Shown piece by piece: positions 1-49,264 of a stretch of 64,000 nt of DNA. The DNA is from Escherichia coli (GTDB taxonomy: Bacteria; Pseudomonadota; Gammaproteobacteria; Enterobacterales; Enterobacteriaceae). The notes under the pieces were generated by a model. It searched no databases. It was not told the origin of the DNA and worked only from the letters and a program-made list of their open reading frames with translations. Both the position numbers and the translations under genes were made by a program. Numbering within the stretch: the first letter of the stretch is position 1; each line of letters starts with the position of its first letter. Where the stretch lies: assembly GCF_022846255.1 (NCBI RefSeq), contig NZ_AP025682.1; one strand, given 5' to 3'.

Positions 1-1
1 C

Positions 2-775
2 CGGACCAGCAACGAGCTGCGTAAACAGGGCGTTTTTATCTCCGGCAGTGGTGTCCGTTCTGCCTAGTTACGCCATAACCTTGAGAATTTCAAAAAACGT
101 CTGAAAGCACTGGAAGAAAAAGTAGCCCGTGATGGCATTGAGCTAACTGACAGCCAGATCGCAGCACTGGAGCGTAAAGCCAGTGATGACGAGGTCTGTG
201 GCGAAATCGAAACGGCTCATCCGGGATATCTGGGTTCGCAGGACACGTTCTATGTAGGCAACCTGAAAGGTGTCGGGCGTATTTATCAGCAGACGTTCGT
301 TGATACGTACTCGAAAGTGGCTCACTGTAAGCTTTACGTCATCAAAACACCGATTACCGCGGCTGACTTACCGAATGATCGTGTACTGCCGTTTTATGCG
401 TCTCAGGGCCTGCCGATGCTGAGAATACTGACCGACAGAGGCACAGAGTACTGTGGCAAAGTAGAGCAGCATGATTATCAGCTTTATCTGGCAATAAACG
501 ATATAGAACACACGAAAACAAAGGCGATGTCCCCGCAGACCAACGGCATCTGCGAGCGGTTCCATAAAACAATCCTGAACGAATTTTATCAGGTAACGTT
601 CCGTAAAAACTGTACGGCGATCTTGATACATTACAGTCGGATCTTGATGAATGACTGGCTCACTATAATAATGAGCGAACCCATCAGGGAAAAATGTGCA
701 ATGGGCGGACGCCAATGGAAACGTTACTTGATGGAAAGCGCATCTGGGCCGAGAAAAATTTAAGCCAGATGTAAT
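2..775 (+). pseudogene. Decayed DDE (rve integrase-core) transposase, IS481-like; 5' end lies outside the window
   Basis: Frame 2 translation gives an integrase-core-like sequence (…TDRGTEYCGKVEQHDYQLYLAINDIEHTKTKAMSPQTNGICERFHKTILNEFYQ…). It is broken by an in-frame TAG at 65-67, a frameshift near the A-run at ~605-612, and an in-frame TGA near 655; the C-terminus (…NNERTHQGKMCNGRTPMETLLDGKRIWAEKNLSQM*) continues in another frame to the TAA at 773-775. Confidence 0.6.
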
Positions 776-882
776 CTGACAGATACCTGTATAAATAACC
801 GGTAACTGTCAGATCAGGTCTGAGCTAATACAGCTTATTCATGCAAGGCCAGTGAACATAACTGACCTTGTTAATATATTTA

Positions 883-2673: not shown

Positions 2674-2807
2674 AAAAACCTCATCGTAACGCCTGTTTAT
2701 ATTTATAGCTGATAAAATAACACAACCACAATGAAAGTGAATAGTGAATTGCCACAAGTTTAACAAACACCTCAAGATCATTTAAAATGACTTAAAGAGA
2801 GGCTCCC

Positions 2808-3125
2808 ATGAGCAGTAAGCGTTAACTCGCAGAGTTTAAAATTAAAGCAGTCAAACAGATTGTTGAACATGGTTATTCTGTTTCCCTGCGTTGCAACACA
2901 TCTGTGTAAGTTCACTCTTTAGTGTACAAGCCATGAGCGTCAGTCGTTCCTGAAATAACACGACCATCGCGGTAACTGCCACTATAATGCGGTTACAGAA
3001 AGCTTTTTCCAGTTACTGAAGTCTGAACGGATAAAGAAAAAATCTTCAGCCCCCTGATCTCATCGTGTTATTCACAACAATCCACTCCTGAAATGGCCGT
3101 GAATACAATTTATCAAGGCTAGTGG
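2808..3125 (+). mobile_element. IS3-family transposase orfA remnant with multiple stops
   Basis: Translation MSSKR*LAEFKIKAVKQIVEHGYSVSLRCNTSV* resembles the HTH N-terminus of IS3-family OrfA proteins but is interrupted by stops; no ORF of 60 aa or more survives. Confidence 0.35.
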
Positions 3126-3257
3126 TCACTTTTCCTATTATGATTAGTGAAAACATAAAGTGCGGAAACGAATGAAAATGCACTGTATTATTTAAAGACA
3201 TCATCCAACGCCCTTACCGTGGTATACACTCAGGCACCAGATGCTGTTTTACAGGGT

Positions 3258-3989
3258 TCACCTGCCATCCAGAAGACGCCCCGGCCCACGACTGCAACCA
3301 TAATTACGTTGCCCGGAACCGTCATGCTGCTTCGTCTCATACTTCACGAGATAACTGGCTCTGTTCTGGGCTTTCTGCATCGCTTCCACATCACCACGCT
3401 TGATCCAGAGAACAGCGGCTTCACCCGGCTTTTTGTCTGAAGCCTTCCTGGTTTCAGAACATCCACCCGACAAAGGCGTATCATCGGAAGAAGGGCGAGC
3501 ATCAGATGATGTCGGTTTACGGAAAGGCGTCCGCCTGGAAAAATGAACCAGTCCATTACCCTGCCAGGGCTCAAGATGCAGAGCGCTACACCATGCCAGT
3601 TGTATCAGCGTCGCCAGCGAAGAAGGAACGGTGAAATCCCCTGGCGAGCACCAGGTATCTTTGTTGAGCAGTAATATCACGTGATAATGTTTCCTGCCTT
3701 TTTCCTTGCCAAACTCCCGACACCAGAAATAACGCAGAGTGGTTGCACGCACACGCTTGTTGGCACGTCGTTTATGTCGCTGGTAAGCCTGAATTTTTGC
3801 TTTCAGGGATGCAAAAAAACGAGAAATCACCGCTGAATCTAAATCGGTATCCATGATGGTGGCAGGCATATACTCAGGGAAACGTAAATCCACCCGGATT
3901 AACGAGACGGCACGGTGTTGCGCCAGGGCACTGTTGAGAATACTTTCAAAACGGGATAACCAGTAAGCATTGTGTATTGGTTGATTCAT
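3258..3989 (-). CDS. YagK/YfjJ-family (inovirus Gp2-like) prophage protein
   Basis: 243-aa ORF whose N-terminal half (MNQPIHNAYWLSRFESILNSALAQHRAVSLIRVDLRFPEYMP…RYFWCREFGKEKGRKHYHVILLLNKDTW…) resembles YagK/YfjJ proteins of CP4-type cryptic prophages; GGAG Shine-Dalgarno ~9 nt upstream of the ATG at 3989. The Arg/Ser/Gly-rich C-terminal tail may be read-through. Confidence 0.6.
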   Translation of the reverse strand: MNQPIHNAYWLSRFESILNSALAQHRAVSLIRVDLRFPEYMPATIMDTDLDSAVISRFFASLKAKIQAYQRHKRRANKRVRATTLRYFWCREFGKEKGRKHYHVILLLNKDTWCSPGDFTVPSSLATLIQLAWCSALHLEPWQGNGLVHFSRRTPFRKPTSSDARPSSDDTPLSGGCSETRKASDKKPGEAAVLWIKRGDVEAMQKAQNRASYLVKYETKQHDGSGQRNYGCSRGPGRLLDGR

Positions 3990-5503
3990 GATGAGAGATC
4001 TCCGTTGATTTGGATTGACTTCACATCATTAATCACCGCGGTAAAACTTTACGGCATCCGGCATTGAGCAATGCTACAACTCTCTGATTAAGAGTGATTG
4101 AAACGGAACAAACCATCCCGGAACGAAAAGATAATTCTACACGCAGGGTAAAAACACTCAAGAACAGCGAATGGATTTAAAAACGACATGGACAACGAGA
4201 AAAGTCAGAAGGGAAAAGGATCCACAGAACATTCGAACAAAACACCAGAAACGCAACCAGAACGCTTCCTGGTAATGCAAATCAACAACAACCCCAAAAC
4301 CTACAGCTTAATCACACAACTCAATCACGGATGCGAATGACACGTTTAAAACCTGTTTACAGATAAACCCCGCCACAAGAACAAAAATCACCAACATCAG
4401 AATCGATTTTCTCATCCTGAAAAAGTTACGTTTCACTACGCACCATAAAAACGATTAACCATCGATAACGTAAACCTTATCTGAATCAAAAACACCAAAA
4501 CCGTTCATCACACTTTCGCAATGCAAGAAGAAACCTCATGACAAAAAGAATGACCTTACACGGAAAAGAAAACGTCAGGAATCGTTAATGCCTCAATCTG
4601 ATTGTTATCAAAACATCCAGAAAGTCGTTTAACAGAATCGTCGTAAGCACATCGAAAAAAACGTCAGATTACTTCAGGAAAGTTCGGGTTGATTTAGCGT
4701 AAAGATACTTTTCTCATGCTAACGTCGAAACTCGAAATCTCAGGAAAGGTTAAACGTAACATCAGTAAAATCGAATAGCAGATTGATTGCTGAAGCAGAA
4801 AGGTTTTACAGCAGCATTAAACTGATTTAGTTAACGTAAAGATTTACTAAACTGGATGTGTATAGCAATGCTTAACGAAAACACTTGTAGAAGTGTTTAT
4901 GAAAATACGTGTATAAGACTTACTGAAATGCTTAGTAAAAATACTTAGTAAAATACGTGTATATAGTATCATACCGACATTAGCAACATTCTCAGACACT
5001 CATGCAGACTGAATGTTGATTACCCGTTTTCACATCAGGCATGGTTCTTTACTGACCAAAAAACAAACTGGTTTACTCTTGAATTATTTTCTCTACCTCA
5101 GAAAACATGGTCTCAGGAATCTGCTATGGTTTCATAGTTTCTGTTGTTCCTTTCATAAAAGTTATAAGTCATTGTCATAATCATACGATAATCACTTTAT
5201 GTTAGTTTTTACTGTCACACGCTACTGACTTTTTCAGTCATTGCCAGAAAGGGGCTCTTTTTACTTCCATTTCACCACTCAACAAATGCAAAACTTGTCC
5301 AGTAAAGCGGACCACCTCTTGCTCACAAGCAACGAATCATCTCCAGGAACAGCCCTCAAACATTGCAGAAACAAAAACAACAAAACCCTCATTATCACTG
5401 ATGTTCGGAAAATTTCCCGGAACAAAAAAAACGAAATCAAAATGAGACTCATTATCATGGATGTAGTCAAAAAGACGTTATGGTGGCTTTCAGTTAAATG
5501 GTA
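3990..5503. other. ORF-free, strongly A-rich / T-poor tract (+ strand) with short direct and inverted repeats
   Basis: No credible ORF of 60 aa or more in any frame over ~1.5 kb; extreme A-over-T skew on the + strand; imperfect tandem units around 4860-4975 (repeated aatacgtgtata and gcttaNNNaaaa motifs) and an inverted repeat aacacttgtagaagtgtt. Confidence 0.4.
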
Positions 5504-6634
5504 CTATTTCTCATAAATCCACTTAACTTTTTTTACTGATTCATCCCAGATAACCACTTTATCAGTAAAAAATGAATTATATAGATTGACGAGTTTTTCT
5601 GTTTCAGTTATTCCCAATGTATTATGTATCAGTTGTAGATATGCTTTTATCCAGATTTCTTTACCCTCCCTCCACTTATCTATAAAACTTTCCAGCTTAC
5701 TTAATCGTTGATTTATAAAAAACGAATCAATATCATGAAAAAGCTCAACAAGAAAACAGCACGAGACAATCTCAACAAAAAACAAATTCTCCTTAAAAGT
5801 ATTATAAAACCTTATCAACACATAACGAAAAACACCTCCTGTTAATCTTTCCTGTTCATAAAACAACAAACCAAAAACAGGAGGAAATCTTTTAACCACA
5901 CCACTTTTAATCCAGTAAGGATGATGATTAGTCTTTACTGGCAGTGAATAAAAGAACAATTCGGTTTCTCTTTTCCCACCACAAACAGACAAAACTGTCT
6001 TATAAAGACTTTTTGAATCATTATGTCCTGATACCCCAGACGAATTAGCAGAGTATTTTCTTTTTACTTTTTGCCTTAATGGAGCTGGAAGAATAATAAA
6101 ACGGGATGGCAGATAACAATCGCTTTCAGAAGACCGGCATTCGCACACATGAAGATTTATATTTACATCCGGACAATTCAAAAACCACACAGAATAATTA
6201 TCGCACCGTTTGCAATATGAAACCCATGAATAAATTGCATAAAGTTCAGAAAGCGCATCTAACTCTGCTTTTGAATTAAATGTGATACCGTTTCTTCGAA
6301 TTCTCGTTTCCAGCGTTCTCCATGCCGGGGTTTTCAGTATCTCACGAACTTTTTTATTAAGTTCAGCCAGAGATGGTCCCTGCTCCTGTTTATGTTTCGT
6401 CCTGCTGTTAATGATTTCTCTTTCTTTTACTAATTTCCTCTTTCTTTTTGGTCCTTCTACCTTTCTTGGCAATGCTTCATTTAATCTGTGAACAGGATTT
6501 TGCTCTCTTCTTTTTTTGAGCTCACAAAACCTCTCATAATGTTTTCTGCACAGTCTTTTCTCCACTGCCATTTTTACTGAGAAAACCTGATTGTTACAAT
6601 TTTTTCTGACACATTTGTTTTTACGTCCGGTCAT
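5504..6634 (-). CDS. Hypothetical protein, 376 aa, basic Cys-rich N-terminus (possible zinc-binding/nucleic-acid-binding); function unknown
   Basis: Long ORF at about 35% GC. N-terminus MTGRKNKCVRKNCNN…CRKHYERFCELKKRR and a second Cys cluster YCKRCDNYSVWFLNCPDVNINLHVCECRSSESDC. No family recognised by eye. Confidence 0.6.
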   Translation of the reverse strand: MTGRKNKCVRKNCNNQVFSVKMAVEKRLCRKHYERFCELKKRREQNPVHRLNEALPRKVEGPKRKRKLVKEREIINSRTKHKQEQGPSLAELNKKVREILKTPAWRTLETRIRRNGITFNSKAELDALSELYAIYSWVSYCKRCDNYSVWFLNCPDVNINLHVCECRSSESDCYLPSRFIILPAPLRQKVKRKYSANSSGVSGHNDSKSLYKTVLSVCGGKRETELFFYSLPVKTNHHPYWIKSGVVKRFPPVFGLLFYEQERLTGGVFRYVLIRFYNTFKENLFFVEIVSCCFLVELFHDIDSFFINQRLSKLESFIDKWREGKEIWIKAYLQLIHNTLGITETEKLVNLYNSFFTDKVVIWDESVKKVKWIYEK

Positions 6635-6818
6635 CCTCTCATCTCCTGAAACAGCAGTATGTCATTAGTTCCCGTTCTGAAAAACTGACGCCATACTCCA
6701 TTACACTTTAACAATAATGTCCGTAATTCAGACATTCCATCATTTTTCACGCCCATATTACCTGAATGATAAACCGGATTAGTGTGATCCGGTTCAGTGA
6801 AATCAACAGGATACCGGT

Positions 6819-7703
6819 ATGTCATTCAGCCATTCTTCCCTCTCCGCACAAGTGAAATCATATCTGACGTTTCTTCCTGAAGAAATTCGTCAGAAAATTC
6901 TTGAACATCTCCACAGCGTTATTCATTACGAACCCGTGATTGGCATTATGGGTAAATCCGGCACCGGCAAAAGTAGCCTGTGTAATGCTATTTTTCAGTC
7001 CCATATCTGTGCCACGCATCCCCTGAACGGCTGCACCCGCCAGGCTCATCGTCTTACCCTGCAGATCGGTGAACGCAGAATGACGCTGGTCGATCTGCCC
7101 GGCATTGGAGAGACGCCGCAACATGATCAGGAATACCGGGCGCTTTACCGTCAGTTACTGCCGGAAGTGGATTTGATTATCTGGATCCTGCGGGCAGATG
7201 AACGCGCATATGCCGCCGACATTACCATGCATCAGTTTTTACTGAATGAAGGCGCAGATCCCTCGCGTTTTCTGTTTGTTCTCAGCCATGCCGATCGCGT
7301 GTTTCCTGCTGAAGAATGGAATGCCACAGAAAAATGCCCGTCCCGTCAGCAGGCGCTCTCACTGGCGACGGTGACAGCCCGGGTGGCAACCCTGTTCCCT
7401 TCATCATTTCCGGTACTCTCCGTTGCTGCACCTGTCGGCTGGAACCTTCCGGCGTTTGTGTCGCTGATGATCCACGCACTGCCACCACAGGCAACCAGCG
7501 CGGTGTATTCACATATCCGGGGAGAAAACCGCTCTGAACAGGCCCAGAAACACGCACAACAGACTTTTGGTGAAACCATCGGGAAAAGTTTTGACGTCGC
7601 CGTTGCCCGTTTCAGTTTTCCGGCCTGGATGTTACAGCTTCTGCGTAAAGCCCGGGACCGCATTATCCACCTGCTGATCACACTGTGGGAGCGTCTGTTC
7701 TGA
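6819..7703 (+). CDS. YfjP/YkfA/YeeP-family GTPase (CP4-type prophage)
   Basis: P-loop GIMGKSGTGKSSLCNAIF and G3-like DLPGIGE motifs; 294 aa. Confidence 0.8.
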   Translation: MSFSHSSLSAQVKSYLTFLPEEIRQKILEHLHSVIHYEPVIGIMGKSGTGKSSLCNAIFQSHICATHPLNGCTRQAHRLTLQIGERRMTLVDLPGIGETPQHDQEYRALYRQLLPEVDLIIWILRADERAYAADITMHQFLLNEGADPSRFLFVLSHADRVFPAEEWNATEKCPSRQQALSLATVTARVATLFPSSFPVLSVAAPVGWNLPAFVSLMIHALPPQATSAVYSHIRGENRSEQAQKHAQQTFGETIGKSFDVAVARFSFPAWMLQLLRKARDRIIHLLITLWERLF

Positions 7704-7905
7704 CACACTCACGCCGACAGGATGTGTCGCTGGATTAACGAGCATTCTTCTTTTTATGAAATCATGCTTAAAAATCAGATAATTAAAAGAATATTTTTTC
7801 TGCTGCATTTTATTCCTGATTATCCGGATGCGACACATCCTTTCAACATCATGATGCATAATAACATCATGAAATAAAAGATGTTTTCTTACGGAGTGCA
7901 CATCT

Positions 7906-8586
7906 ATGTCTGATAATCGTTCCCGGCATGATCGCCTGGCGGTTCGCTTATCACTCATTATCAGCCGACTGATGGCCGGAGAATCTCTGTCACTAAAAAC
8001 ACTGTCAGATGAATTTGGCGTTACAGAACGTACTTTACAGCGCGATTTTCATCAGCGTCTGGTTCACCTGGATTTAGAGTACAGAAATGGCAGGTACAGC
8101 CTCAGACGACAGAGCAGCCCAGGTGCGATCCCTGAAATGCTTTCTTTTATACAGAATACCGGGATCGCACGGATACTTCCGCTCCGGAACGGACGACTGA
8201 TAACCTGTCTTACCGACAACCAGGAGCCCTCTCCCTGCCTTATCTGGCTACCGGCGCCGGATATCACTGCAACGTTCCCCGAGTGTTTCTCGCAACTCAT
8301 CCTGGCAATAAGACAGTGTATCCACATCTCTCTGATGACTGAGCGATGGTATCCGTCACTGGAGCCCTGCCGGCTCATTTATTACAGCGGTAGCTGGTAT
8401 CTGATCGCGTTACAGAAGGGAAAACTGCAGGTCTTTCCTCTGGCAGATATCAAATCAGTCAGCCTGACATCAGAACGGTTTGAACGGAGAGGCCACATCC
8501 ACAGTCTGGTCGCTGAAGAGCGTTTTATCTCCGCCCTGCCACATTTCTCTTTCATCCATAAACTTATCAACACCTTTAACCTGTGA
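7906..8586 (+). CDS. YfjR-like transcriptional regulator (HTH + WYL-like domain)
   Basis: 226-aa ORF with an N-terminal HTH-like segment (LKTLSDEFGVTERTLQRDFHQ); sits in the conserved position after the GTPase gene. Confidence 0.65.
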   Translation: MSDNRSRHDRLAVRLSLIISRLMAGESLSLKTLSDEFGVTERTLQRDFHQRLVHLDLEYRNGRYSLRRQSSPGAIPEMLSFIQNTGIARILPLRNGRLITCLTDNQEPSPCLIWLPAPDITATFPECFSQLILAIRQCIHISLMTERWYPSLEPCRLIYYSGSWYLIALQKGKLQVFPLADIKSVSLTSERFERRGHIHSLVAEERFISALPHFSFIHKLINTFNL

Positions 8587-8733
8587 TCGCCGGCCTGCCA
8601 AAGCCGTCCCGACAGGTATGGAGACAATATGTTGAACAGAAAACTAAATATACGGCTACGTCATTCCCTGAACAGTCACTGCATACCTTCCGTCATTATC
8701 AATAACACCGTACGTTCATTTCAGAGGTCAGTC

Positions 8734-9411
8734 ATGAATACCAGAGCTCTTTTTCCCCTGCTGTTCACTGTGGCATCATTCTCCGCCTCCGCCGGCAACT
8801 GGGCTGTCAAAAACGGCTGGTGTCAGACCATGACGGAAGATGGTCAGGCGCTGGTAATGCTGAAAAATGGCACGATTGGTATTACCGGCCTGATGCAGGG
8901 ATGCCCGAATGGCGTACAGACGCTCCTGGGCAGCCGTATCAGTATTAACGGTAACCTGATCCCCACATCACAAATGTGTAATCAGCAGACGGGATTCAGG
9001 GCTGTTGAGGTGGAAATCGGACAGGCGCCGGAAATGGTCAAAAAAGCCGTTCACTCCATAGCAGAGCGTGATGTGTCCGTTTTACAGGCATTTGGTGTAC
9101 GAATGGAATTCACCCGCGGTGATATGCTGAAGGTCTGTCCGAAATTTGTCACATCACTTGCCGGTTTTTCCCCGAAACAGACGACCACTATTAATAAAGA
9201 TTCCGTCCTGCAGGCTGCCCGGCAGGCATACGCCCGGGAATATGACGAGGAAACAACAGAAACCGCTGATTTTGGCTCTTACGAAGTAAAAGGCAATAAG
9301 GTTGAGTTTGAAGTATTCAATCCTGAAGACCGTGCGTACGACAAAGTGACCGTCACGGTTGGTGCTGACGGTAATGCCACCGGCGCCAGCGTTGAATTTA
9401 TCGGAAAATAG
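8734..9411 (+). CDS. Secreted/periplasmic hypothetical protein with signal peptide
   Basis: Start placed at M36 of the track [24 protein letters not shown], a signal-peptide-like N-terminus. Confidence 0.6.
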
Positions 9412-9416
9412 CCGGT

Positions 9417-9650
9417 ATGTCGGACTGCCACCCTGTTTTATTGCCCGAAGGCCCTTTCTCACGCGAACAGGCGGTTGCCGTCACAACAGCTTACCGCAAT
9501 GTGCTTATTGAAGATGACCAGGGAACGCATTTCCGGCTGGTTATCCGCAATGCCGAAGGGCAGCTACGCTGGCGGTGCTGGAATTTTGAACCTGATGCCG
9601 GAAAACAGCTAAATTCGTATCTCGCCAGTGAGGGAATTCTCAGGCAATAA
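9417..9650 (+). CDS. Small conserved prophage protein (DUF905-like)
   Basis: 77-aa ORF tightly packed between neighbours on the same strand. Confidence 0.5.
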
Positions 9651-9739
9651 ACGTCTTCATTTCATCCATCAGGCCGCGTCTTCTCCGGGAGACGCGGCCT
9701 TTTCGTTTATACCGCTAATTCATTCATAAGGAGCAAAGT

Positions 9740-10558
9740 ATGCAATTAGCCAGTCGTTTTGGTCATGTAAATCAGATCCGTCGGGAGCGCCCACTGACAC
9801 GCGAAGAACTGATGTACCACGTCCCGAGTATTTTTGGAGAAGACCGGCACACCTCCCGCAGTGAACGGTATGCGTACATTCCCACCATCACCGTCCTGGA
9901 AAATCTGCAGCGGGAAGGCTTTCAGCCGTTCTTCGCCTGCCAGACCCGTGTGCGCGACCAGAGCCGCCGGGAATATACCAAACATATGCTGCGTCTGCGG
10001 CGGGCCGGACAGATAACCGGTCAGCATGTGCCTGAAATTATTCTGCTCAACTCCCATGACGGTTCATCCAGCTACCAGATGTTACCCGGATATTTTCGTG
10101 CCATCTGCACCAATGGCTTGGTCTGCGGTCAGTCGCTGGGAGAAGTCCGGGTGCCCCACCGGGGAAACGTGGTGGACAGGGTGATTGAAGGTGCTTACGA
10201 AGTGGTGGGCGTGTTTGACCGGATTGAGGAAAAGCGTGATGCCATGCAGTCGCTGGTCCTGCCGCCACCGGCACGCCAGGCGCTGGCACAGGCGGCGCTG
10301 ACTTACCGTTATGGTGATGAACATCAGCCCGTCACCACTACCGACATTCTGACGCCACGACGCCGGGAGGATTACGGTAAGGACCTGTGGAGTGCTTATC
10401 AGACCATCCAGGAAAATATGCTGAAAGGCGGGATTTCCGGTCGCAGTGCCAGAGGAAAACGTATCCATACCCGGGCCATTCGCAGCATCGATACCGACAT
10501 TAAGCTCAACCGGGCGTTGTGGGTGATGGCAGAAACGCTGCTGGAGAGCATGCGCTGA
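9740..10558 (+). CDS. DUF932 family protein (YfjQ/YafZ-like)
   Basis: 272-aa ORF; MQLASRFGHVNQIRRERPLTREELMYHVPSIFGEDRHTSRSERYAYIPTITVLENLQREGFQPFFACQT… is typical of YafZ/YfjQ. Confidence 0.8.
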   Translation: MQLASRFGHVNQIRRERPLTREELMYHVPSIFGEDRHTSRSERYAYIPTITVLENLQREGFQPFFACQTRVRDQSRREYTKHMLRLRRAGQITGQHVPEIILLNSHDGSSSYQMLPGYFRAICTNGLVCGQSLGEVRVPHRGNVVDRVIEGAYEVVGVFDRIEEKRDAMQSLVLPPPARQALAQAALTYRYGDEHQPVTTTDILTPRRREDYGKDLWSAYQTIQENMLKGGISGRSARGKRIHTRAIRSIDTDIKLNRALWVMAETLLESMR

Positions 10559-10649
10559 TGCTGTTTCCCTGAAAGTGCAGCCCTGACTCACGTCTGTACC
10601 AGTCCCCAGGCATTCTTCCATTCATTTACTTTTTATAAGGAATCATCTC

Positions 10650-11135
10650 ATGACAACCTTTTCGCATAGCTCCACCACACCTTCTGTTTCCGTAACTACT
10701 GCATCAGGGAATAACCAGTCTCAACTGGTTGCCACTCCCGTCCCTGATGAACAGCGCATCAGCTTCTGGCCGCAGCACTTTGGCCTCATTCCACAGTGGG
10801 TGACCCTGGAGCCCCGTGTCTTCGGCTGGATGGACCGTCTGTGTGAAGACTACTGCGGGGGTATCTGGAATCTGTACACCCTGAACAACGGTGGCGCATT
10901 TATAGCACCTGAACCGGATGAAGATGATGGAGAAACCTGGATACTGTTCAATGCCATGAACGGTAACCGCGCTGAAATGAGCCCGGAAGCTGCCGGCATT
11001 GCCGCCTGTCTGATGGCGTACAGCCATCATGCCTGTCGTACGGAGTGTTATGCCATGACGGTCCACTATTACCGGCTGCGGGATTACGCCCTGCAACATC
11101 CGGAATGCAGCGCCATTATGCGCATCATTGACTGA
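10650..11135 (+). CDS. Antirestriction protein (ArdB/KlcA-like; YfjX/YeeS-neighbour family)
   Basis: 161-aa ORF with the conserved …WPQHFGLIPQWVTLEPRVFGWMDRLCEDYCGGIWNLYTLNNGGAFIAPE… pattern. Confidence 0.8.
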   Translation: MTTFSHSSTTPSVSVTTASGNNQSQLVATPVPDEQRISFWPQHFGLIPQWVTLEPRVFGWMDRLCEDYCGGIWNLYTLNNGGAFIAPEPDEDDGETWILFNAMNGNRAEMSPEAAGIAACLMAYSHHACRTECYAMTVHYYRLRDYALQHPECSAIMRIID

Positions 11136-11149
11136 AAGGGGCCGGAACA

Positions 11150-11626
11150 ATGCAACAGATTTCCTTTCTGCCCGGAGAAATGACGCCCGGTGAGCGCAGC
11201 CTCATTCAGCGGGCCCTGAAAACCCTGGACCGCCATCTTCATGAACCCGGCGTGGCCTTCACCTCCACGCATGCGGCACGGGAATGGCTGATTCTGAACA
11301 TGGCGGGACTGGAGCGTGAAGAATTCCGGGTGCTGTATCTGAACAACCAGAATCAGCTGATTGCCGGTGAAACCCTCTTCACCGGCACCATCAACCGCAC
11401 GGAAGTCCATCCCCGGGAAGTGATTAAACGCGCCCTGTATCACAATGCCGCTGCCGTGGTGCTGGCACACAATCACCCGTCCGGTGAAGTCACACCCAGT
11501 AAGGCAGACCGGCTTATCACCGAACGTCTGGTACAGGCACTGGCCCTGGTGGATATCCGGGTGCCGGACCATCTGATAGTCGGTGGCAACCAGGTTTTCT
11601 CCTTTGCGGAACACGGTCTGCTTTAA
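11150..11626 (+). CDS. RadC-like JAB-domain protein (YeeS/YfjY/YkfG family)
   Basis: JAMM motif HNHPSGEVTPSKAD in a 158-aa ORF. Confidence 0.85.
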   Translation: MQQISFLPGEMTPGERSLIQRALKTLDRHLHEPGVAFTSTHAAREWLILNMAGLEREEFRVLYLNNQNQLIAGETLFTGTINRTEVHPREVIKRALYHNAAAVVLAHNHPSGEVTPSKADRLITERLVQALALVDIRVPDHLIVGGNQVFSFAEHGLL

Positions 11627-11688
11627 CCCGTCACAACTACATCACACTTGTTTTCACTTTTATCTTCTGTCTTCAGAGGTATCCCATC

Positions 11689-11910
11689 ATGAAAATTATC
11701 ACCCGTGGTGAAGCCATGCGTATTCACCAACAGCATCCTGCATCCCGTCTTTTTCCGTTCTGTACCGGTAAGTACCGCTGGCACGGCAGCGCTGAAGCGT
11801 ATACCGGTCGTGAAGTGCAGGATATTCCCGGCGTTCTTGCCGTGTTTGCTGAACGCCGTAAGGACAGTTTTGGCCCGTATGTCCGGCTGATGAGCGTCAC
11901 TCTGAACTGA
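11689..11910 (+). CDS. DUF987 protein (YeeT-like)
   Basis: 73-aa ORF MKIITRGEAMRIHQQHPASRLFPFCTGKYRWHGSAEAYTGREVQDIPGVLAVFAERRKDSFGPYVRLMSVTLN. Confidence 0.75.
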   Translation: MKIITRGEAMRIHQQHPASRLFPFCTGKYRWHGSAEAYTGREVQDIPGVLAVFAERRKDSFGPYVRLMSVTLN

Positions 11911-11989
11911 GTCAGGAAGGGCATTCAGAAGAGCAGAATTATCGCCACCACCGGACCATTCTTAACCAATTTTCTGTGAGGATTTTATT

Positions 11990-12358
11990 GTGTCAGACAC
12001 ATTCTCCGGGACAACGCATCCCGATGACAATCACGACCGCCCCTGGTGGGGGCTGCCCTGTACCGTGACACCTTGTTTTGGCGCCCGTCTGGTGCAGGAG
12101 GGTAACCGGTTGCATTACCTTGCCGACCGCGCCGATATCAGAGGCCGGTTCAGCGACGCGGATGCGTACCATCTGGACCAGGCCTTTCCGCTGCTGATGA
12201 AACAACTGGAGCTCATGCTCACCAGCGGTGAACTGAATCCCCGCCATCAGCATACCGTCACGCTGTATGCAAAAGGGCTGACCTGCGAAGCCGACACCCT
12301 CGGCAGTTGTGGCTACGTTTATATGGCTGTTTATCCGACGCCCGAAACGAAAAAGTAA
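11990..12358 (+). CDS. Type IV antitoxin of the CbeA/YeeU family
   Basis: 122-aa ORF immediately upstream of a CbtA-like gene; …WGLPCTVTPCFGARLVQEGNRLHYLADRA… matches the YeeU/CbeA pattern. Confidence 0.85.
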   Translation: MSDTFSGTTHPDDNHDRPWWGLPCTVTPCFGARLVQEGNRLHYLADRADIRGRFSDADAYHLDQAFPLLMKQLELMLTSGELNPRHQHTVTLYAKGLTCEADTLGSCGYVYMAVYPTPETKK

Positions 12359-12447
12359 ACCACCGGAATAATCGTCTGTTCCGGCCTGGTGCTTTCACCA
12401 CGCCACTTTTCCATTTTTCATCTCTGCATATCAGGAAAATCTTCAGT

Positions 12448-12825
12448 ATGAAAACATTACCTGTATTACCCGGGCAGGCGGCCAGTTCACGCCCGTCTCC
12501 GGTTGAAATCTGGCAGACACTGCTCACCCGACTGCTGGACCAGCATTACGGCCTTACGCTGAATGACACACCGTTCGCTGATGAACGTGTGATTGAGCAG
12601 CATATTGAGACAGGCATTTCACTGTGCGATGCGGTGAACTTTCTCGTTGAAAAATACACACTGGTACGTACCGACCAGCCAGGATTCAGCGCCTGTACCC
12701 GTTCTCAGTTAATAAACAGTATTGATATCCTCCGGGCCCGCCGGGCAACCGGCCTGATGGCCCGCGACAATTACAGAACGGTAAATAACATTACCCTGGG
12801 TAAACATCCGGGGGCGAAACAATGA
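12448..12825 (+). CDS. Type IV toxin of the CbtA/YeeV family
   Basis: Start at M48 of the track ORF; MKTLPVLPGQAASSRPSPVEIWQTLLTRLLDQHYGLTLNDTPFADERVIEQHIETGISLCDAVNFLVEKYTLVRTDQPGF…. Confidence 0.85.
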   Translation: MKTLPVLPGQAASSRPSPVEIWQTLLTRLLDQHYGLTLNDTPFADERVIEQHIETGISLCDAVNFLVEKYTLVRTDQPGFSACTRSQLINSIDILRARRATGLMARDNYRTVNNITLGKHPGAKQ

Positions 12826-13310
12826 AACTGGCCCTGACGCTGGAAGCCGACAGCATTAACGTGCAGGCACTGAACATGGGGCGCATTGTCGTTGACGTCG
12901 ATGGTGTTACTCTCGCTTAACTGATTAACGTGGTCTGCGATAACGGTTACTCCCTTCGTGTTGTTGATGAATCTGACCGGACATCAGCAGAGCGCACGCC
13001 ACCATCTGCGGCCCTTACCGGCATACGCTGCAGTACCGCGCATATCACGGCAAAGGACAACGCCTGGCTGTACTCGCTGTCACATCAGACGAATGGCACC
13101 GGCGAATCAGAATGGATTCATTTTACAGGTAGCGGATATCTGTTACGTACCGGTGCGTGGTCGTACCCGGTTCTGCGGCTTAAACGCCTGGGGCTGTCCA
13201 GAACGTTCCGCCGTCTGGTTGTCACACTCATCCGGCGTTATGGCGTCAGTCTCATTCATCTGGATGCCAGTGCCGGATGTCTGCCGGGTTTACCCACTTT
13301 CGACTGGTAA
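12822..13310 (+). pseudogene. YeeW-like prophage gene interrupted by an in-frame TAA
   Basis: ATG at 12822 overlaps the cbtA-like stop (ATGA). Frame 0 reads MKLALTLEADSINVQALNMGRIVVDVDGVTLA, then TAA at 12918-12920, then continues in the same frame (LINVVCDNGYSLRVVDESDR… to the stop at 13308-13310). Confidence 0.5.
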
Positions 13311-13326
13311 TCCGGAAATTCACAAC

Positions 13327-13524
13327 ATGAAATCATTAACCACGGAAACCGCACTGGATATTCTGATTGCGTGGCTGCAGGACAATATCGACTGCGAATC
13401 GGGAATTATCTTTGACAACGATGAGGATAGAACGGATTCGGCAGCACTGTTGCCCTGTATCGAACAGGCCAGGGAGGATATCCGTATCCTGCGCCAGTTG
13501 CAGCTTCTGCAACAGAACCGGTGA
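13327..13524 (+). CDS. Small hypothetical prophage protein (65 aa)
   Basis: ATG-initiated ORF MKSLTTETALDILIAWLQDNIDCESGIIFDNDEDRTDSAALLPCIEQAREDIRILRQLQLLQQNR; corresponds to the C-terminal part of the track ORF 12958..13524. Confidence 0.45.
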   Translation: MKSLTTETALDILIAWLQDNIDCESGIIFDNDEDRTDSAALLPCIEQAREDIRILRQLQLLQQNR

Positions 13525-13608
13525 GTCTTACTCACCAGACTTCATTCCACTGACGCCAGCCTGAACAGGGCTGGCGTTTTCATTTATCTGCAAAAAGGAA
13601 TATCGATT

Positions 13609-14451
13609 ATGTCTGAAATCACAGCCCCCCGTCCGGAAGTGGTCAACGGGCATACGGACGTTATCTGCTCAACCAGTATCCGCCACATTCTGGCTGTACG
13701 AAAGAGTACGCTGCTGCAAATCGACACACTTACCCGGCAACTGGCTGAAATCTCAGCAATGACAGAAAGCATTGGCGGTAAAACCGCACTGGACTGGGCG
13801 ATGAAACAGGATTTTCGCTGCGGCTGCTGGCTCATGGAGAAAACTGAAACGGCAATGAAAGCCATCACCCGAAACCTTGACCGTGAAATCTGGCGTGACC
13901 TGATGCAACGCTCCGGGATGCTGTCATTAATGGATGCGCAGACCCGTGATACATGGTACCGGTCACTGGAGTACAATAATTTTCCGGAAATCAGTGAAGC
14001 GAACATTCTGAGCACATTTGAACAACTGCACCAGAATAAGGATGAGGTGTTTGAGCGAGGGGTGATCAACGTCTTCAGGGGACTGAGCTGGGATTACAAA
14101 ACCAACTCACCCTGTAAATTTGGCAGTAAAATTATCGTCAACAACCTGGTGAGGTGGGACCGGTGGGGGTTTCATCTTATCACCGGGCAACAGACTGACC
14201 GACTCGTCGACCTGGAAAGAATGCTACATCTGTTCAGCGGCAAACCGATCCCCGACAACCGGGAAAACATCACTATTCGTCTGGATGGTCACATCCAGTC
14301 CGTTCAGGGTAAAGAGCGCTATGAAGACGAGATGTTCATCATTAAATACTTTAAGAAGGGATCTGCACACATCACTTTCAAAAGGCTGGAACTGATTGAC
14401 AGAATTAACGATATAATAGCCAGGTACTTTCCTTCTGTGCTCTCAGCCTGA
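13609..14451 (+). CDS. DUF4942-family protein (terminal gene of CP4-like elements)
   Basis: 280-aa ORF at the island end, just inside the tRNA-derived repeat. Confidence 0.7.
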   Translation: MSEITAPRPEVVNGHTDVICSTSIRHILAVRKSTLLQIDTLTRQLAEISAMTESIGGKTALDWAMKQDFRCGCWLMEKTETAMKAITRNLDREIWRDLMQRSGMLSLMDAQTRDTWYRSLEYNNFPEISEANILSTFEQLHQNKDEVFERGVINVFRGLSWDYKTNSPCKFGSKIIVNNLVRWDRWGFHLITGQQTDRLVDLERMLHLFSGKPIPDNRENITIRLDGHIQSVQGKERYEDEMFIIKYFKKGSAHITFKRLELIDRINDIIARYFPSVLSA

Positions 14452-14561
14452 TCCCGAGTGTGATTCCCTTTCGATATCAAAAGGGACTGCGGGTATAATT
14501 GAGGGTACATTTTTAATCAAACCAAACAAATTGTATTAATATCAATATGATAAAAGAAATT

Positions 14562-24778: not shown

Positions 24779-25051
24779 TCAACTGCGAATATCATCATAC
24801 TCCCGTGTTTTATCAAATTCGTGTTTCGCAAATGGGCATAGTGGGATAATTTTTCGTTTTTCCCGACGCATTTTTTCCACGACTTTCGCAACCAGCTGTT
24901 TACCAATCCCTTGCCCTTTCAGGCTTTCATCGACATCGGTATGTTCGATAATCGCTAAATTCTCTCCGGTCGGCACAAAGACAATTTCAGCGATTTGCTT
25001 GCCTTGTTCGTCATTAATGTAAAATTTATTGTGGCCTTCGCGTATTTCCAT
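24779..25051 (-). CDS. yjdJ: GNAT-like small protein YjdJ
   Basis: 90-aa ORF with the GNAT-like QGIGKQLV motif. Confidence 0.8.
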
Positions 25052-25062
25052 TTTACCCTCGC

Positions 25063-25293
25063 TTATTTATGACGGTATTTCAGCGCGCCACTCGGGCACG
25101 TATCAATCACTTTAACCACAGTGGCAACGTCGACTTCATCCGGCATGATTCACGGCTTTCGTTTGAGATTAAATAACTTGCCGTTGCCACGTACGCAATT
25201 GCCAGAATGCTGACATATCGCAGTATTGAAATAGACATCGATCTTTTCGCCGGTATAACAGCGATAACCCCCGTCCAGTAGCGCCCGATCCAT
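25063..25293 (-). pseudogene. yjdI: yjdI (DUF1271 Cys-rich protein) interrupted by an in-frame TGA at codon 48
   Basis: Minus-strand frame from the ATG at 25293 reads MDRALLDGGYRCYTGEKIDVYFNTAICQHSGNCVRGNGKLFNLKRKP, then TGA at 25152..25150, then [28 protein letters not shown] to the TAA at 25063-25065. 47 + 1 + 28 = 76 codons; the track has no ORF of 60 aa or more in this frame. Confidence 0.6.
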
Positions 25294-25473
25294 GACCTTC
25301 CCTCTCTCATCAGTATGATTATCGCTATAAGCATAGCCCCGGAATCTTCATACAGCACTGGCAGTTTCCGTTGCCAGAATCTCTTCCCCTATATAGCCAA
25401 TCATTCTTACTCCCTTTGAATTACCCGCCTCATCAGAGATAATGCTTAAGAAATTTGTCACACAAGGAAGCTG

Positions 25474-27105
25474 ATGAGACATTCATTGCCCTACCGTATG
25501 TTACGCAAACGTCCGATGAAATTGAGTACCACTGTGATCTTAATGGTCAGCGCGGTACTGTTCTCGGTGCTATTGGTGGTGCATCTGATTTACTTCTCGC
25601 AAATCAGTGATATGACGCGAGACGGGCTAGCTAACAAGGCTCTGGCAGTAGCGCGTACCCTCGCCGACTCGCCGGAAATCCGTCAGGGCTTGCAGAAAAA
25701 ACCGCAGGAGAGTGGAATCCAGGCCATCGCGGAAGCCGTGCGCAAACGCAACGATCTGCTGTTTATTGTCGTTACCGATATGCACAGTCTTCGCTACTCG
25801 CATCCTGAAGCCCAGCGTATTGGTCAGCCATTTAAAGGTGATGACATCCTTAAAGCGCTGAATGGCGAAGAAAATGTCGCTATCAATCGCGGTTTTCTGG
25901 CGCAGGCTTTACGCGTATTTACCCCCATCTACGATGAAAATCATAAACAAATTGGCGTAGTGGCGATCGGCCTTGAGTTAAGCCGCGTGACCCAACAGAT
26001 CAATGACAGTCGCTGGAGCATTATCTGGTCGGTACTATTTGGCATGCTGGTCGGACTGATCGGCACCTGCATTCTGGTTAACGTACTGAAAAAAATCCTT
26101 TTCGGCCTGGAACCCTACGAAATCTCCACACTGTTTGAGCAACGCCAGGCCATGTTGCAGTCCATCAAAGAAGGCGTCGTTGCCGTGGACGATCGCGGCG
26201 AGGTCACGCTGATCAACGATGCCGCACAAGAATTGCTGAATTACCGTAAGTCGCAGGACGATGAGAAACTGTCGACGCTAAGCCACTCGTGGTCACAAGT
26301 GGTAGATGTCTCGGAAGTGTTACGCGACGGAACCCCACGCCGCGACGAAGAGATTACGATTAAAGACCGACTATTACTGATCAACACCGTTCCGGTGCGC
26401 AGTAATGGCGTTATCATCGGTGCCATTTCAACCTTCAGGGACAAAACTGAAGTACGTAAACTGATGCAGCGACTCGACGGTCTGGTCAACTATGCTGACG
26501 CACTTCGTGAACGATCCCACGAATTTATGAATAAATTGCATGTGATTCTCGGATTATTGCATCTGAAGAGTTATAAGCAGTTGGAAGATTACATTCTCAA
26601 AACAGCCAATAACTATCAGGAAGAGATTGGCTCTCTGCTGGGTAAGATCAAATCTCCGGTTATCGCTGGTTTTTTAATCAGCAAGATTAACCGCGCGACC
26701 GATTTAGGCCATACGCTGATTTTAAACAGTGAAAGCCAGCTGCCAGACAGCGGTAGTGAGGATCAGGTCGCGACGCTGATTACCACGTTGGGAAATCTGA
26801 TAGAAAACGCGCTGGAGGCATTAGGGCCGGAACCCGGTGGCGAAATTAGCGTAACATTGCACTACCGTCACGGCTGGCTGCACTGCGAAGTTAACGATGA
26901 TGGACCGGGGATCGCACCCGACAAAATCGATCACATTTTTGACAAAGGTGTCTCGACAAAAGGAAGCGAGCGAGGCGTCGGTTTAGCACTTGTCAAACAA
27001 CAGGTAGAAAATCTCGGCGGCAGCATCGCCGTGGAATCGGAACCCGGGATTTTCACACAATTTTTTGTCCAGATACCCTGGGACGGGGAGAGGTCGAACA
27101 GATGA
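25474..27105 (+). CDS. dcuS: C4-dicarboxylate sensor histidine kinase
   Basis: 543 aa; two transmembrane segments, periplasmic sensor, PAS and HATPase_c motifs (DDGPGIAPD). Confidence 0.95.
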   Translation: MRHSLPYRMLRKRPMKLSTTVILMVSAVLFSVLLVVHLIYFSQISDMTRDGLANKALAVARTLADSPEIRQGLQKKPQESGIQAIAEAVRKRNDLLFIVVTDMHSLRYSHPEAQRIGQPFKGDDILKALNGEENVAINRGFLAQALRVFTPIYDENHKQIGVVAIGLELSRVTQQINDSRWSIIWSVLFGMLVGLIGTCILVNVLKKILFGLEPYEISTLFEQRQAMLQSIKEGVVAVDDRGEVTLINDAAQELLNYRKSQDDEKLSTLSHSWSQVVDVSEVLRDGTPRRDEEITIKDRLLLINTVPVRSNGVIIGAISTFRDKTEVRKLMQRLDGLVNYADALRERSHEFMNKLHVILGLLHLKSYKQLEDYILKTANNYQEEIGSLLGKIKSPVIAGFLISKINRATDLGHTLILNSESQLPDSGSEDQVATLITTLGNLIENALEALGPEPGGEISVTLHYRHGWLHCEVNDDGPGIAPDKIDHIFDKGVSTKGSERGVGLALVKQQVENLGGSIAVESEPGIFTQFFVQIPWDGERSNR

Positions 27106-31578: not shown

Positions 31579-32229
31579 ATGACCCGCACACTCAAGCCGT
31601 TAATTCTTAACACCGGCGCACTGGCGCTAACGTTAATCCTGATTTATACCGGCATTTCGGCCCATGACAAACTCACCTGGCTGATGGAAGTGACACCGGT
31701 GATTATTGTCGTGCCGCTACTGCTTGCCACCGCTAAACGTTATCCGTTAACGCCGCTGCTTTATACGCTCATTTTCTTTCACGCCATCATCCTGATGGTC
31801 GGCGGGCAATACACCTACGCGAAAGTCCCCGTTGGTTTTGAGGTGCAGGAATGGCTGGGGTTGAGCCGTAATCCGTATGACAAACTGGGGCATTTTTTCC
31901 AGGGGCTGGTGCCTGCACTGGTGGCACGAGAGATCCTCGTGCGCGGGATGTACGTTCGCGGGCGTAAAATGGTGGCGTTTCTGGTCTGTTGTGTCGCGCT
32001 GGCGATAAGCGCGATGTATGAGTTAATCGAGTGGTGGGCAGCGCTGGCAATGGGCCAGGGCGCAGATGATTTTCTCGGTACTCAAGGCGACCCGTGGGAT
32101 ACGCAATCCGATATGTTCTGCGCACTACTGGGCGCATTAACGACGGTGATATTCCTCGCCCGCTTTCATTGCCGCCAGCTACGGCGCTTTGGCTTAATCA
32201 CCAGAGCGCCGGAAGCGATTACCCCTTAA
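31579..32229 (+). CDS. yjdF: Inner membrane protein YjdF
   Basis: 216-aa multi-TM ORF; its stop overlaps the melA stop on the opposite strand (TTAA at 32226-32229). Confidence 0.85.
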   Translation: MTRTLKPLILNTGALALTLILIYTGISAHDKLTWLMEVTPVIIVVPLLLATAKRYPLTPLLYTLIFFHAIILMVGGQYTYAKVPVGFEVQEWLGLSRNPYDKLGHFFQGLVPALVAREILVRGMYVRGRKMVAFLVCCVALAISAMYELIEWWAALAMGQGADDFLGTQGDPWDTQSDMFCALLGALTTVIFLARFHCRQLRRFGLITRAPEAITP

Positions 32230-33581
32230 CGGTGCAACCAGCCTGGCAGCCAGTCGCCGTGGGCGGCAATCAGGTCGTCAACAAGAGCATATATTTCGTC
32301 AATGCCCAGCACGGCGGCAGTATGCGGGTCCATCATCGCGGCGTGGTAAACACGGTCGCGGTTTTCCGTAAGAATGGCTTCGGTCAGCAGCGTCTGTACG
32401 TTGATGTTGGTTTGCATCAGAGCGGCCAGATGCGAAGGTAGCGTACCGACTTTGGTCGGCTGAATGCCATTAGCATCAACCAGACAGGCTACTTCCACGC
32501 AACATCCTTGTGGCAGGTTATCAATCAATCCATCGTTACGGACGTTGCCGTAAATCACACTCGGCTCGCCAGTCCAGATAGCGTTCATGATTGTGCTGGC
32601 ATATTCCCGTGACGGTTTAATATCAATCCGGGAGGCGTTCTTATACTCCTCCAGCTCTTTATGCCAGTTCGCCAGCTGCTCGACGCAGCGTTTCGGGTAC
32701 TCATCCAGCGGTACTTTATAACGCTCAATCAAATCCTCACGACCTGGCTTAATAAACCACGGCGTGTACTCAGCAAAATGTTCTGACGATTCCGTGACGA
32801 AGTAGCCCAGCTTTTTGAACATTTCGTAGCGCACAATATTCTGGCAGCGAGTATTGCCATGAATATTCGGCTTCGGTGCCTGCCCTGCTTCATAAGCCGC
32901 CAGCAGTTCCGGGTAGAGATTCACGTAACTGCCGTCGGCGGTTTTGCGCTCCAGTTCCAGGTAAAACGCCATATGGTTGATACCTGCGCAACGGTAACGC
33001 AGCGTAGCCGGATCGATATTGAGGTCACGCGCCAGCTCTTCCGCCGTTCCCTGCACCGAATGGCACAGCCCTACCTGCTTGATATGCGGATAGCGGGCAT
33101 ACATCGCCCAGGTATTCATCGCCATTGGGTTAACGTAGTTGAGCATGGTGGCATCGGGGCAGACTTCCGTCATGTCCTCGCAAATTTGCCACAGGTGCGG
33201 AATGGTACGTAGCGCGCGCATAATACCGCCCGGCCCCAACGTATCGGCAATGGTTTGTTCCAGACCATGCCGCTTACAGACCTCGAAATCAGTCACCGTG
33301 CAAGGTTCATAACCGCCAATCTGAAATGCCACCACCACAAAATCAGCATCCTGTAAGGCTTCTTTCTGTTGGGTGTGGCAGGTGATTTTGCCGCTGGCCC
33401 CTGCTGAATCCATCAGCTTACGCACCACAATGTGCGACTCTTCCAGGCGGGTGGGATCAATGTCCATCAGGGCAATATGCGCCGTTTTCAGCGCCTCGCG
33501 ATGGAACACATCACCAAGAATATTTTTAACGAAAATCGTCGAACCAGCGCCGATAAATGTAATTTTAGGTGCAGACATCAT
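32226..33581 (-). CDS. melA: Alpha-galactosidase (GH4, NAD/Mn-dependent)
   Basis: 451 aa; GH4 N-terminal Rossmann motif KITFIGAGSTIF. Confidence 0.95.
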   Translation of the reverse strand: MMSAPKITFIGAGSTIFVKNILGDVFHREALKTAHIALMDIDPTRLEESHIVVRKLMDSAGASGKITCHTQQKEALQDADFVVVAFQIGGYEPCTVTDFEVCKRHGLEQTIADTLGPGGIMRALRTIPHLWQICEDMTEVCPDATMLNYVNPMAMNTWAMYARYPHIKQVGLCHSVQGTAEELARDLNIDPATLRYRCAGINHMAFYLELERKTADGSYVNLYPELLAAYEAGQAPKPNIHGNTRCQNIVRYEMFKKLGYFVTESSEHFAEYTPWFIKPGREDLIERYKVPLDEYPKRCVEQLANWHKELEEYKNASRIDIKPSREYASTIMNAIWTGEPSVIYGNVRNDGLIDNLPQGCCVEVACLVDANGIQPTKVGTLPSHLAALMQTNINVQTLLTEAILTENRDRVYHAAMMDPHTAAVLGIDEIYALVDDLIAAHGDWLPGWLHR

Positions 33582-42230: not shown

Positions 42231-43322
42231 ATGCGTTTTCTGCGCCGACCAATATCGCTGCGCCAACGGCTGATATTGACCATCGGGGCCATTTTGTTGG
42301 TGTTTGAGCTGATCAGCGTCTTCTGGCTATGGCATGAAAGTACCGAGCAGATTCAGCTGTTTGAGCAGGCGCTACGCGACAATCGTAACAACGATCGCCA
42401 CATCATGCGTGAGATCCGCGAGGCGGTCGCCAGCCTGATTGTCCCCGGCGTCTTTATGGTCAGCCTGACGCTATTTATCTGCTATCAGGCGGTACGCCGC
42501 ATCACCCGCCCGCTGGCGGAGCTGCAAAAAGAGCTGGAAGCGCGCACCGCCGACAACTTAACGCCCATTGCCATTCACAGCGCCACCCTCGAAATCGAAG
42601 CGGTGGTTTCGGCGTTAAACGATCTGGTCAGTCGCCTGACCAGCACGCTGGATAACGAAAGGTTGTTTACCGCTGACGTCGCGCACGAACTGCGAACGCC
42701 ACTGGCGGGGGTGCGTTTGCATCTGGAACTGCTGGCGAAAACGCATCACATTGATGTAGCACCGTTAGTGGCACGACTTGATCAGATGATGGAGAGCGTC
42801 TCCCAGCTGCTGCAACTGGCGCGTGCCGGACAGTCATTTTCTTCCGGTAATTATCAACATGTAAAACTGCTGGAAGATGTCATTCTCCCCTCGTATGACG
42901 AACTTAGTACCATGCTCGACCAGCGCCAGCAAACCCTGCTATTGCCAGAGAGCGCCGCCGACATCACCGTTCAGGGTGATGCAACCCTGCTGCGGATGTT
43001 ATTGCGAAACCTGGTAGAAAACGCCCATCGTTATAGCCCACAAGGCAGCAACATTATGATTAAGCTGCAAGAAGATGGCGGAGCGGTCATGGCCGTTGAA
43101 GATGAAGGGCCGGGTATTGATGAGAGTAAATGCGGGGAGTTGAGTAAAGCGTTTGTACGAATGGACAGCCGTTATGGCGGAATTGGTCTGGGGTTAAGTA
43201 TTGTCAGCCGCATTACACAGTTGCATCACGGGCAGTTTTTCCTGCAAAACCGGCAAGAGACTTCCGGCACGCGGGCCTGGATACGGCTGAAAAAAGATCA
43301 GTACGTGGCAAACCAGATATAA
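42231..43322 (+). CDS. basS: Sensor histidine kinase BasS/PmrB
   Basis: 363 aa from the ATG (MRFLRRPISL…); an in-frame TTG at 42222 is an alternative start; H-box VAHELRTPL. Confidence 0.9.
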   Translation: MRFLRRPISLRQRLILTIGAILLVFELISVFWLWHESTEQIQLFEQALRDNRNNDRHIMREIREAVASLIVPGVFMVSLTLFICYQAVRRITRPLAELQKELEARTADNLTPIAIHSATLEIEAVVSALNDLVSRLTSTLDNERLFTADVAHELRTPLAGVRLHLELLAKTHHIDVAPLVARLDQMMESVSQLLQLARAGQSFSSGNYQHVKLLEDVILPSYDELSTMLDQRQQTLLLPESAADITVQGDATLLRMLLRNLVENAHRYSPQGSNIMIKLQEDGGAVMAVEDEGPGIDESKCGELSKAFVRMDSRYGGIGLGLSIVSRITQLHHGQFFLQNRQETSGTRAWIRLKKDQYVANQI

Positions 43323-43387
43323 AGAAAGCTGCTGACCACCAGCACGCTGAACACGGTAGTTAAACTTTCATAAACACGGTTTTTCAT
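43298..43387 (-). CDS. pmrR: Small membrane regulator PmrR (29 aa)
   Basis: Hand-translated MKNRVYESLTTVFSVLVVSSFLYIWFATY on the minus strand, overlapping the basS 3' end; coordinates hand-derived. Confidence 0.7.
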   Translation of the reverse strand: MKNRVYESLTTVFSVLVVSSFLYIWFATY

Positions 43388-43498
43388 TGCACTCTCCTCC
43401 GTTAACCTGGAGGAGAGTATGCGCGTCAGAGATTAAGTGAACCTTAAGAGTTCAATTGACCTGATAAGACAGCGTCACATCAGGCCATCCGTTTCAGC

Positions 43499-49120: not shown

Positions 49121-49199
49121 TAAGCCGGATAAGGCGCTCGCGCCGCATCCGGCAACGATGCCGACAGCCTGATGCGACGCTGACCGCGTCTTATCAGGC
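49121..49199. repeat. REP (repetitive extragenic palindrome) elements
   Basis: gccggataaggcgctcgcgccgcatccggca and an inverted partner; canonical E. coli REP motifs. Confidence 0.7.
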
Positions 49200-49264
49200 T
49201 TCCCTCTCATCTGTATAAATTTCGAACTACACTTAACTGGCTTCTCTTAACTGAGGTCACCATC

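Follow-up and report, generated by a model that had tools for sequence, protein, structure and literature searches.

Within the window analysed here, a stretch of 64,000 nucleotides of Escherichia coli DNA, the yjdI gene is interrupted by an in-frame TGA, which raises the question of whether the gene has genuinely been lost, whether the stop is an error of sequencing, or whether it is a signal that the ribosome decodes or bypasses. The frame lies on the minus strand (25293..25063), where translation gives 47 codons, a TGA at 25152..25150, 28 further codons in the same frame and the terminal TAA; the letters around the premature stop are CCG TGA ATC ATG. The whole frame of 76 codons plus TAA (25063..25293), interrupted at codon 48, is thereby divided into an N-terminal ORF of 47 codons plus the premature TGA (25150..25293, minus strand), which keeps Cys27, His29, and Cys33, and a C-terminal remnant of codons 49–76 plus TAA (25063..25149, minus strand), which would go untranslated and holds 11 invariant positions, including Cys66-Pro67. 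Inside the remnant, a 27-codon ORF that lacks a Shine-Dalgarno sequence begins at AUG50 (25063..25146, minus strand; AUG at 25146). ORFs of 47 aa and 27 aa are the only ones listed in this frame, in agreement with the remark in the first-pass annotation that it contains no ORF of 60 aa or more. The coordinates and codon count given there are likewise confirmed by translation, and the length of 76 codons that it gave for YjdI matches the annotation of the intact gene, 231 nt (76 codons plus stop) in both a K-12-derived genome and B2 genomes.

The interrupted gene occupies the orthologous position. The order dcuS, yjdI, yjdJ, ghoS, ghoT, lysU in the window is that of annotated genomes, and yjdI is divergent from dcuSR and followed by yjdJ, ghoS, and ghoT, as in CP039403, KE51, and a K-12 derivative. 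On one side lies dcuS (25474..27105, plus strand); on the other, yjdJ (24779..25051, minus strand) encodes an intact GNAT acetyltransferase of 90 aa, is preceded by a Shine-Dalgarno sequence of its own, and begins 11 nt past the yjdI TAA. The exact YjdJ protein of the window is widespread in public collections. The Shine-Dalgarno sequence of yjdI itself, GAGGGAAGG (25296..25304, minus strand), is intact, with a predicted pairing energy of −9.0 kcal/mol with the 16S rRNA 3′ end, and the truncated ORF should therefore still be translated. Intact yjdI (K-12 b4126, UniProt P0AF59; WP_000373291.1 in CP039403), which carries the RefSeq product name "4Fe-4S mono-cluster protein YjdI", thus resembles the window locus in gene, in position between dcuS and yjdJ, and in frame length, but has TGG instead of TGA at codon 48; the longest product of the window allele is 47 aa and lacks Cys66-Pro67.

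Comparison with the nearest intact allele, found in CP039403 and seven others, reduces the difference to one base: 280 of 281 nt are identical, and the sole change is a G-to-A substitution on the coding strand at alignment column 171 (window position 25150), the third base of codon 48, which turns TGG (Trp48) into TGA. This is exactly the TGG-to-TGA nonsense change in a 76-codon yjdI that the first-pass annotation had proposed. The mutation is read directly from the sequence, and no statistical pattern is involved. The Trp48 codon is also the only tryptophan codon of yjdI. In the complete RefSeq E. coli genomes (n = 5,426), full identity to the window over the 281 nt was found in none of the 5336 that cover the region, and an exact 61-mer centred on the TGA in none of the 4871 to which the 61-mer comparison extends. 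The complete genomes matched carry TGG at codon 48, and tryptophan occupies this position in 16 of 16 orthologues. The absence of the TGA from the complete genomes compared indicates that the stop is derived and rare. An earlier concern, that reference yjdI alleles might carry TGA here as well, falls away, as they carry TGG.

Two incidental effects of the substitution can be read at the same base. With the mutated G, a GATC Dam site (window 25147–25150; gene nt 144–147) loses its first base and becomes AATC. An 83-codon ORF with a GTG start (25107–25358, minus strand) overlaps yjdI in another frame; the G-to-A change replaces Gly by Glu in it and neither opens nor closes it, and we treat it as a chance ORF.

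A single-base difference from the nearest allele, in an allele found in no complete RefSeq genome, could in principle be an error of sequencing or assembly, in which case the true base would be G and yjdI intact. The public collections speak against this. A product identical to the 47 aa is deposited there, e.g., as GenBank GDA54992.1 from E. coli, labelled "hypothetical protein", and a true TGA is present in two accessions that show 100% identity to the window across 6144 nt (L004, DRR322657) and 4061 nt (L005, DRR102846). These two could be the window's own strain or even its read sets, and independence rests on two others, which have the same TGA on distinguishable strain backgrounds: L003 (SRR15128260), with 27 mismatches to the window in 6.1 kb, and L006 (metagenome ERZ929318), with 12 mismatches in 3.3 kb. 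The same base thus recurs in four other assemblies, including two clearly different strains, and a substitution, unlike a homopolymer indel, would be an atypical error; a sequencing error, one of the options left by the first-pass annotation, is very unlikely. The differences among the window, L003, L006, and an intact relative (L001) are scattered and mostly private SNPs, and the TGA, at gene position 144, alone unites the three carriers. Flank divergence among carriers of the window's haplotype group is 0.3–0.45%. This pattern is compatible with a single origin of the TGA followed by divergence, and by these comparisons TGA48 is a real, inherited mutation of a strain lineage.

Several further places that were retrieved were rejected as carriers. 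Six of the ten returned for the 47-aa product (L007–L012) are contigs that end at codon 47–48 without a stop, and they were not counted; the contigs of L015–L019, L024, and the Shigella flexneri places L025–L027 end there too and do not constitute evidence of mutation. Many metagenome and isolate contigs (L007–L012, L015–L019, L024) end within 0–2 nt of yjdI codon 48, which is largely an artefact of exact 47-aa look-ups; ends at ...CCGTG could mark branch points of the assembly graph in samples that contain both TGG and TGA strains.

What the truncation removes can be judged from the protein family. With Trp48 restored, YjdI matches Pfam PF06902 (Fer4_19) at E = 5.4e-30, residues 13–76 covering model positions 1–64 of 64; the 47-aa fragment alone still has a precomputed PF06902 match. 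NCBIfam was discarded as a test of YjdI membership: it holds no specific model, and only PFLE_PFLC was matched, at 15.8 bits against a cut-off of 174. A sequence search of the PDB returned no structure of a YjdI relative at E ≤ 1. The Fer4_19 family is defined by the motif CxHx3Cx32CP with three strictly conserved cysteines, as described in a preprint on a homologous domain (bioRxiv 10.1101/2024.04.03.587993); as cited in the same preprint, E. coli YjdI has been characterised spectroscopically in a PhD thesis. In YjdI, the motif corresponds to Cys27, His29, Cys33, and Cys66-Pro67, and in the window no single translated polypeptide contains it in full, the third ligand Cys66-Pro67 falling after the TGA. 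In an alignment of 16 orthologues (about 14 genera, 63–95% identity, one from Listeria), Pro47-Trp48-Ile49, Pro51-Asp52, Val59, and Cys66-Pro67-Ser-Gly-Ala-Leu-x-Tyr are invariant; of 30 invariant positions in all, 12 fall at codon 48 or beyond it.

Because one cluster ligand and much of the conserved core are missing from the 47-aa product, the natural inference is that it should be non-functional, and with the cluster motif split by the TGA, the locus is best classed as a pseudogene of the Fer4_19 4Fe-4S mono-cluster family and not as a functional member. Genuine pseudogenisation, another of the options considered in the first-pass annotation, is the one that the evidence favours: the allele is derived and is found again in other strains, and the residues that it removes include invariant ones, a cluster ligand among them. 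Very probably, then, TGA48 is a true loss-of-function nonsense allele of yjdI that arose in an ancestor of the lineage and was inherited. The course of events would have begun with a spontaneous G:C-to-A:T transition at the third base of the TGG48 codon in that ancestor, followed by inheritance. Translation would begin as usual, the Shine-Dalgarno sequence and ATG being intact, and would be terminated at codon 48 by release factor 2, yielding a 47-residue peptide that keeps Cys27, His29, and Cys33 but has lost Trp48 and the C-terminal block with Cys66-Pro67. Such a peptide presumably cannot assemble an Fe-S cluster and is probably degraded. A few ribosomes may instead read the UGA with Trp-tRNA(Trp) and produce wild-type YjdI at a low level, in which case the allele may behave as a strong hypomorph instead of a strict null.

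This last point leads to a different reading of the stop, in which decoding of the UGA by Trp-tRNA(Trp) would supply enough wild-type YjdI for the lineage to keep a down-tuned gene. A Pro codon before a stop and an A after it are generally regarded as relatively weak termination contexts, and both are present at TGA48. In E. coli, Trp-tRNA(Trp) and RF2 compete for UGA, and readthrough reflects this competition (PMC10570021); with tryptophan as the original residue, it would yield wild-type YjdI. The allele has also been kept through 0.3–0.45% of flank divergence, with no second lesion in the window, L003, or L006, and this persistence would also fit an allele that retains some function. On the other hand, readthrough is normally a small fraction in wild-type strains, the stop is not conserved, and no stimulatory structure accompanies it; lineages with TAG48, which Trp-tRNA does not read in this way, or with TGA48 plus an IS3 element (see below) point instead to plain dispensability. 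Compared with known leaky UGA alleles of E. coli, the window allele shares a UGA under RF2/Trp-tRNA(Trp) competition (PMC10570021), with the particularity that readthrough here restores the native residue, but it has neither a stimulatory element nor conservation of the stop. A functionally sufficient leak is thus improbable, and we regard leakage at UGA48 as incidental and not as a mechanism. About equally improbable is the broader proposition that TGA48 is a tuned, growth-state-dependent hypomorph that persists in a diversified clade, or that repeated loss of yjdI has been selected.

Programmed recoding at the UGA, by selenocysteine insertion or by evolved readthrough, would require more than an in-frame UGA, which is the only feature in its favour. 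The 76 nt spanning the TGA and the sequence downstream fold no better than shuffled sequence (MFE −19 vs. a shuffle mean of −17.8 kcal/mol, z = −0.44) and thus contain no SECIS-like or other stimulatory structure, and no Rfam family matches the yjdI locus at gathering thresholds. The sequence downstream of the TGA is identical to that of TGG alleles, and the interrupted position is an invariant Trp and not a Cys in homologues. The stop is confined to rare lineages, essentially all E. coli being without it, and a TAG allele is known at the same codon. Bacterial selenoprotein genes of the fdhF type, with a UGA followed by SECIS, accordingly share only the in-frame UGA with the window: no SECIS stem-loop lies 3′ of this UGA, which is unconserved and replaces Trp instead of aligning with Cys. 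Nor are the stop and its context conserved as in programmed readthrough, other lineages having TAG, or TGA with an IS element. In practice, folding, Rfam, the identity to TGG alleles, and the invariant Trp together rule out both selenocysteine insertion and evolved readthrough. The recoding event that the first-pass annotation had entertained is therefore abandoned, given the lack of structure after the TGA, the unconserved stop, and the TAG allele at the same codon.

The letters TGA ATC ATG also offer a potential restart, in which reinitiation at AUG50 would produce a 27-aa peptide that, together with the 47-aa fragment, rebuilds a two-piece Fe-S protein. The in-frame ATG lies 3 nt past the stop, and short stop–start distances can permit reinitiation in bacteria. 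However, the predicted anti-Shine-Dalgarno pairing at AUG50 is only −0.1 kcal/mol, compared with −9.0 kcal/mol at the yjdI start and −8.9 kcal/mol at the yjdJ start. In the normal protein this ATG just encodes Met50, a position occupied by I, A, L, V, or T in orthologues, and the invariant Trp48 and Ile49 would be absent from both pieces. Reinitiation at ATC ATG, as suggested earlier, thus lacks the Shine-Dalgarno support of true starts (about −9 kcal/mol) and is highly improbable.

Stops at codon 48 of yjdI are not confined to the window's lineage. A TGA48 occurs on a haplotype 1.9% diverged from the window (L013), a TAG48 on a K-12-like haplotype (L014, SRR26369445, and 14 similar places), and a further TGA48 on a divergent haplotype that is additionally interrupted from about nt 188 (L020–L023). 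The TAG48 allele resembles that of the window as a nonsense mutation of the Trp codon with a 47-aa product, but it arose by a second-position transition (TGG to TAG) and is not wobble-readable by Trp-tRNA in the same way; its 61-mer has no exact match in the complete E. coli genomes. The L020–L023 allele is present in one complete genome, that of E. coli N96 from a Tibetan pig (NZ_CM169999.1), where yjdI (AC2A8Y_RS22905) is annotated by PGAP as a pseudogene ending after 47 codons and adjoining an IS3-family transposase. N96 thus shares the TGA at codon 48 and the 47 codons with the window, but its divergent yjdI haplotype, the IS3-family element from about nt 188, and the different downstream DNA mark it as an independent event. 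The DNA downstream of yjdI in N96 encodes a hypothetical protein, an HlyD-family protein, and a peptidase-domain ABC transporter and not yjdJ/ghoST (L020–L023, L028). Judged by their haplotypes, the nonsense events at Trp48 are independent and number at least four including the window's, with at least three other backgrounds.

Repeated loss of this kind might reflect adaptation, with inactivation of yjdI being selected in some niches and the disruption in Shigella flexneri forming part of the same trend. Trp48 has been hit by nonsense mutations at least four separate times, on different haplotypes and once together with an additional IS3 insertion, which would fit this view, as would the thousands of S. 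flexneri contigs that end inside yjdI at about nt 138–142. Yet the alleles are very rare: any Trp48 stop of those found here is present in 1 of 5426 complete genomes, and carriers amount to tens of contigs, whereas the intact protein is encoded in more than 1000. Moreover, the recurrence look-up was conditioned on 47-aa products, so that codon 48 is over-sampled. A stop can arise in yjdI through 27 different single-base changes, of which just four are transitions, two of them in codon 48; given the very many E. coli sequenced, repeat hits are expected from mutation alone, without selection. Adaptive loss is therefore unlikely, and we also rejected the notion of a mutational "hot spot" at codon 48, ascertainment through 47-aa look-ups and the mutation spectrum accounting for the recurrence.

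The S. flexneri sequences show a break of their own. A 47-aa "partial" YjdI ending in ...KRKS is listed for S. flexneri in 3251 blocks of the collection, and the contigs shown (L025–L027) all break off inside the gene, a few bases short of codon 48. This points to a junction with a fixed repeat (IS) or to the end-point of a rearrangement.

The yjdI of the window is thus an ordinary pseudogene: a known gene interrupted by a mutation of the commonest spontaneous class. Public collections already contained its 47-aa product, an equivalent allele had been annotated as a pseudogene before, and mechanistically nothing about it is new. The practical consequence concerns annotation, as the locus should read as a yjdI pseudogene and not as a 47-aa hypothetical protein (the label of GDA54992.1), and beyond annotation its importance is small. 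The lineage is a natural knock-down or knock-out of yjdI, which could be of use in finding out what this uncharacterised Fe-S protein does, and the recurrence illustrates that in a small gene the one Trp codon is the site most exposed to nonsense mutation.

The lineage to which the window belongs is poorly represented among the 5,426 complete RefSeq E. coli genomes: at best, identity to them reaches 99.1% for the 13–37 kb segment (B2 strains, e.g., CFT073 and KE51) and 98.4% for 37–61 kb. Upstream of cadC, an island-like block at about 1–14500 contains ORFs collinear with KE51 genes, whose annotations include a GTPase family protein, DUF932, an antirestriction protein, a JAB-domain protein, a YeeU-family antitoxin with a CbtA-family toxin, DUF4942, and an integrase remnant.

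The melibiose:sodium transporter gene melB is cleanly absent from the junction between yjdF (31579..32229, plus strand) and melA (32226..33581, minus strand), at window 32205–32226. The approximately 1.66 kb that lie between the melA stop and yjdF in K-12 have no match anywhere in the window. The B2 strain KE51 is annotated with the same melB-less arrangement; its yjdF is also frameshifted, and yjdF of the window is an open ORF of 216 codons. Two Rfam families score above their gathering thresholds elsewhere in the window: the sRNA STnc630 (43291–43456, minus strand; 182 bits), which adjoins pmrB and proP, and naRNA4/CssrE, present in two copies at 49123–49200 (plus strand) and 51677–51756 (minus strand), with 85.5 and 65.3 bits, respectively.
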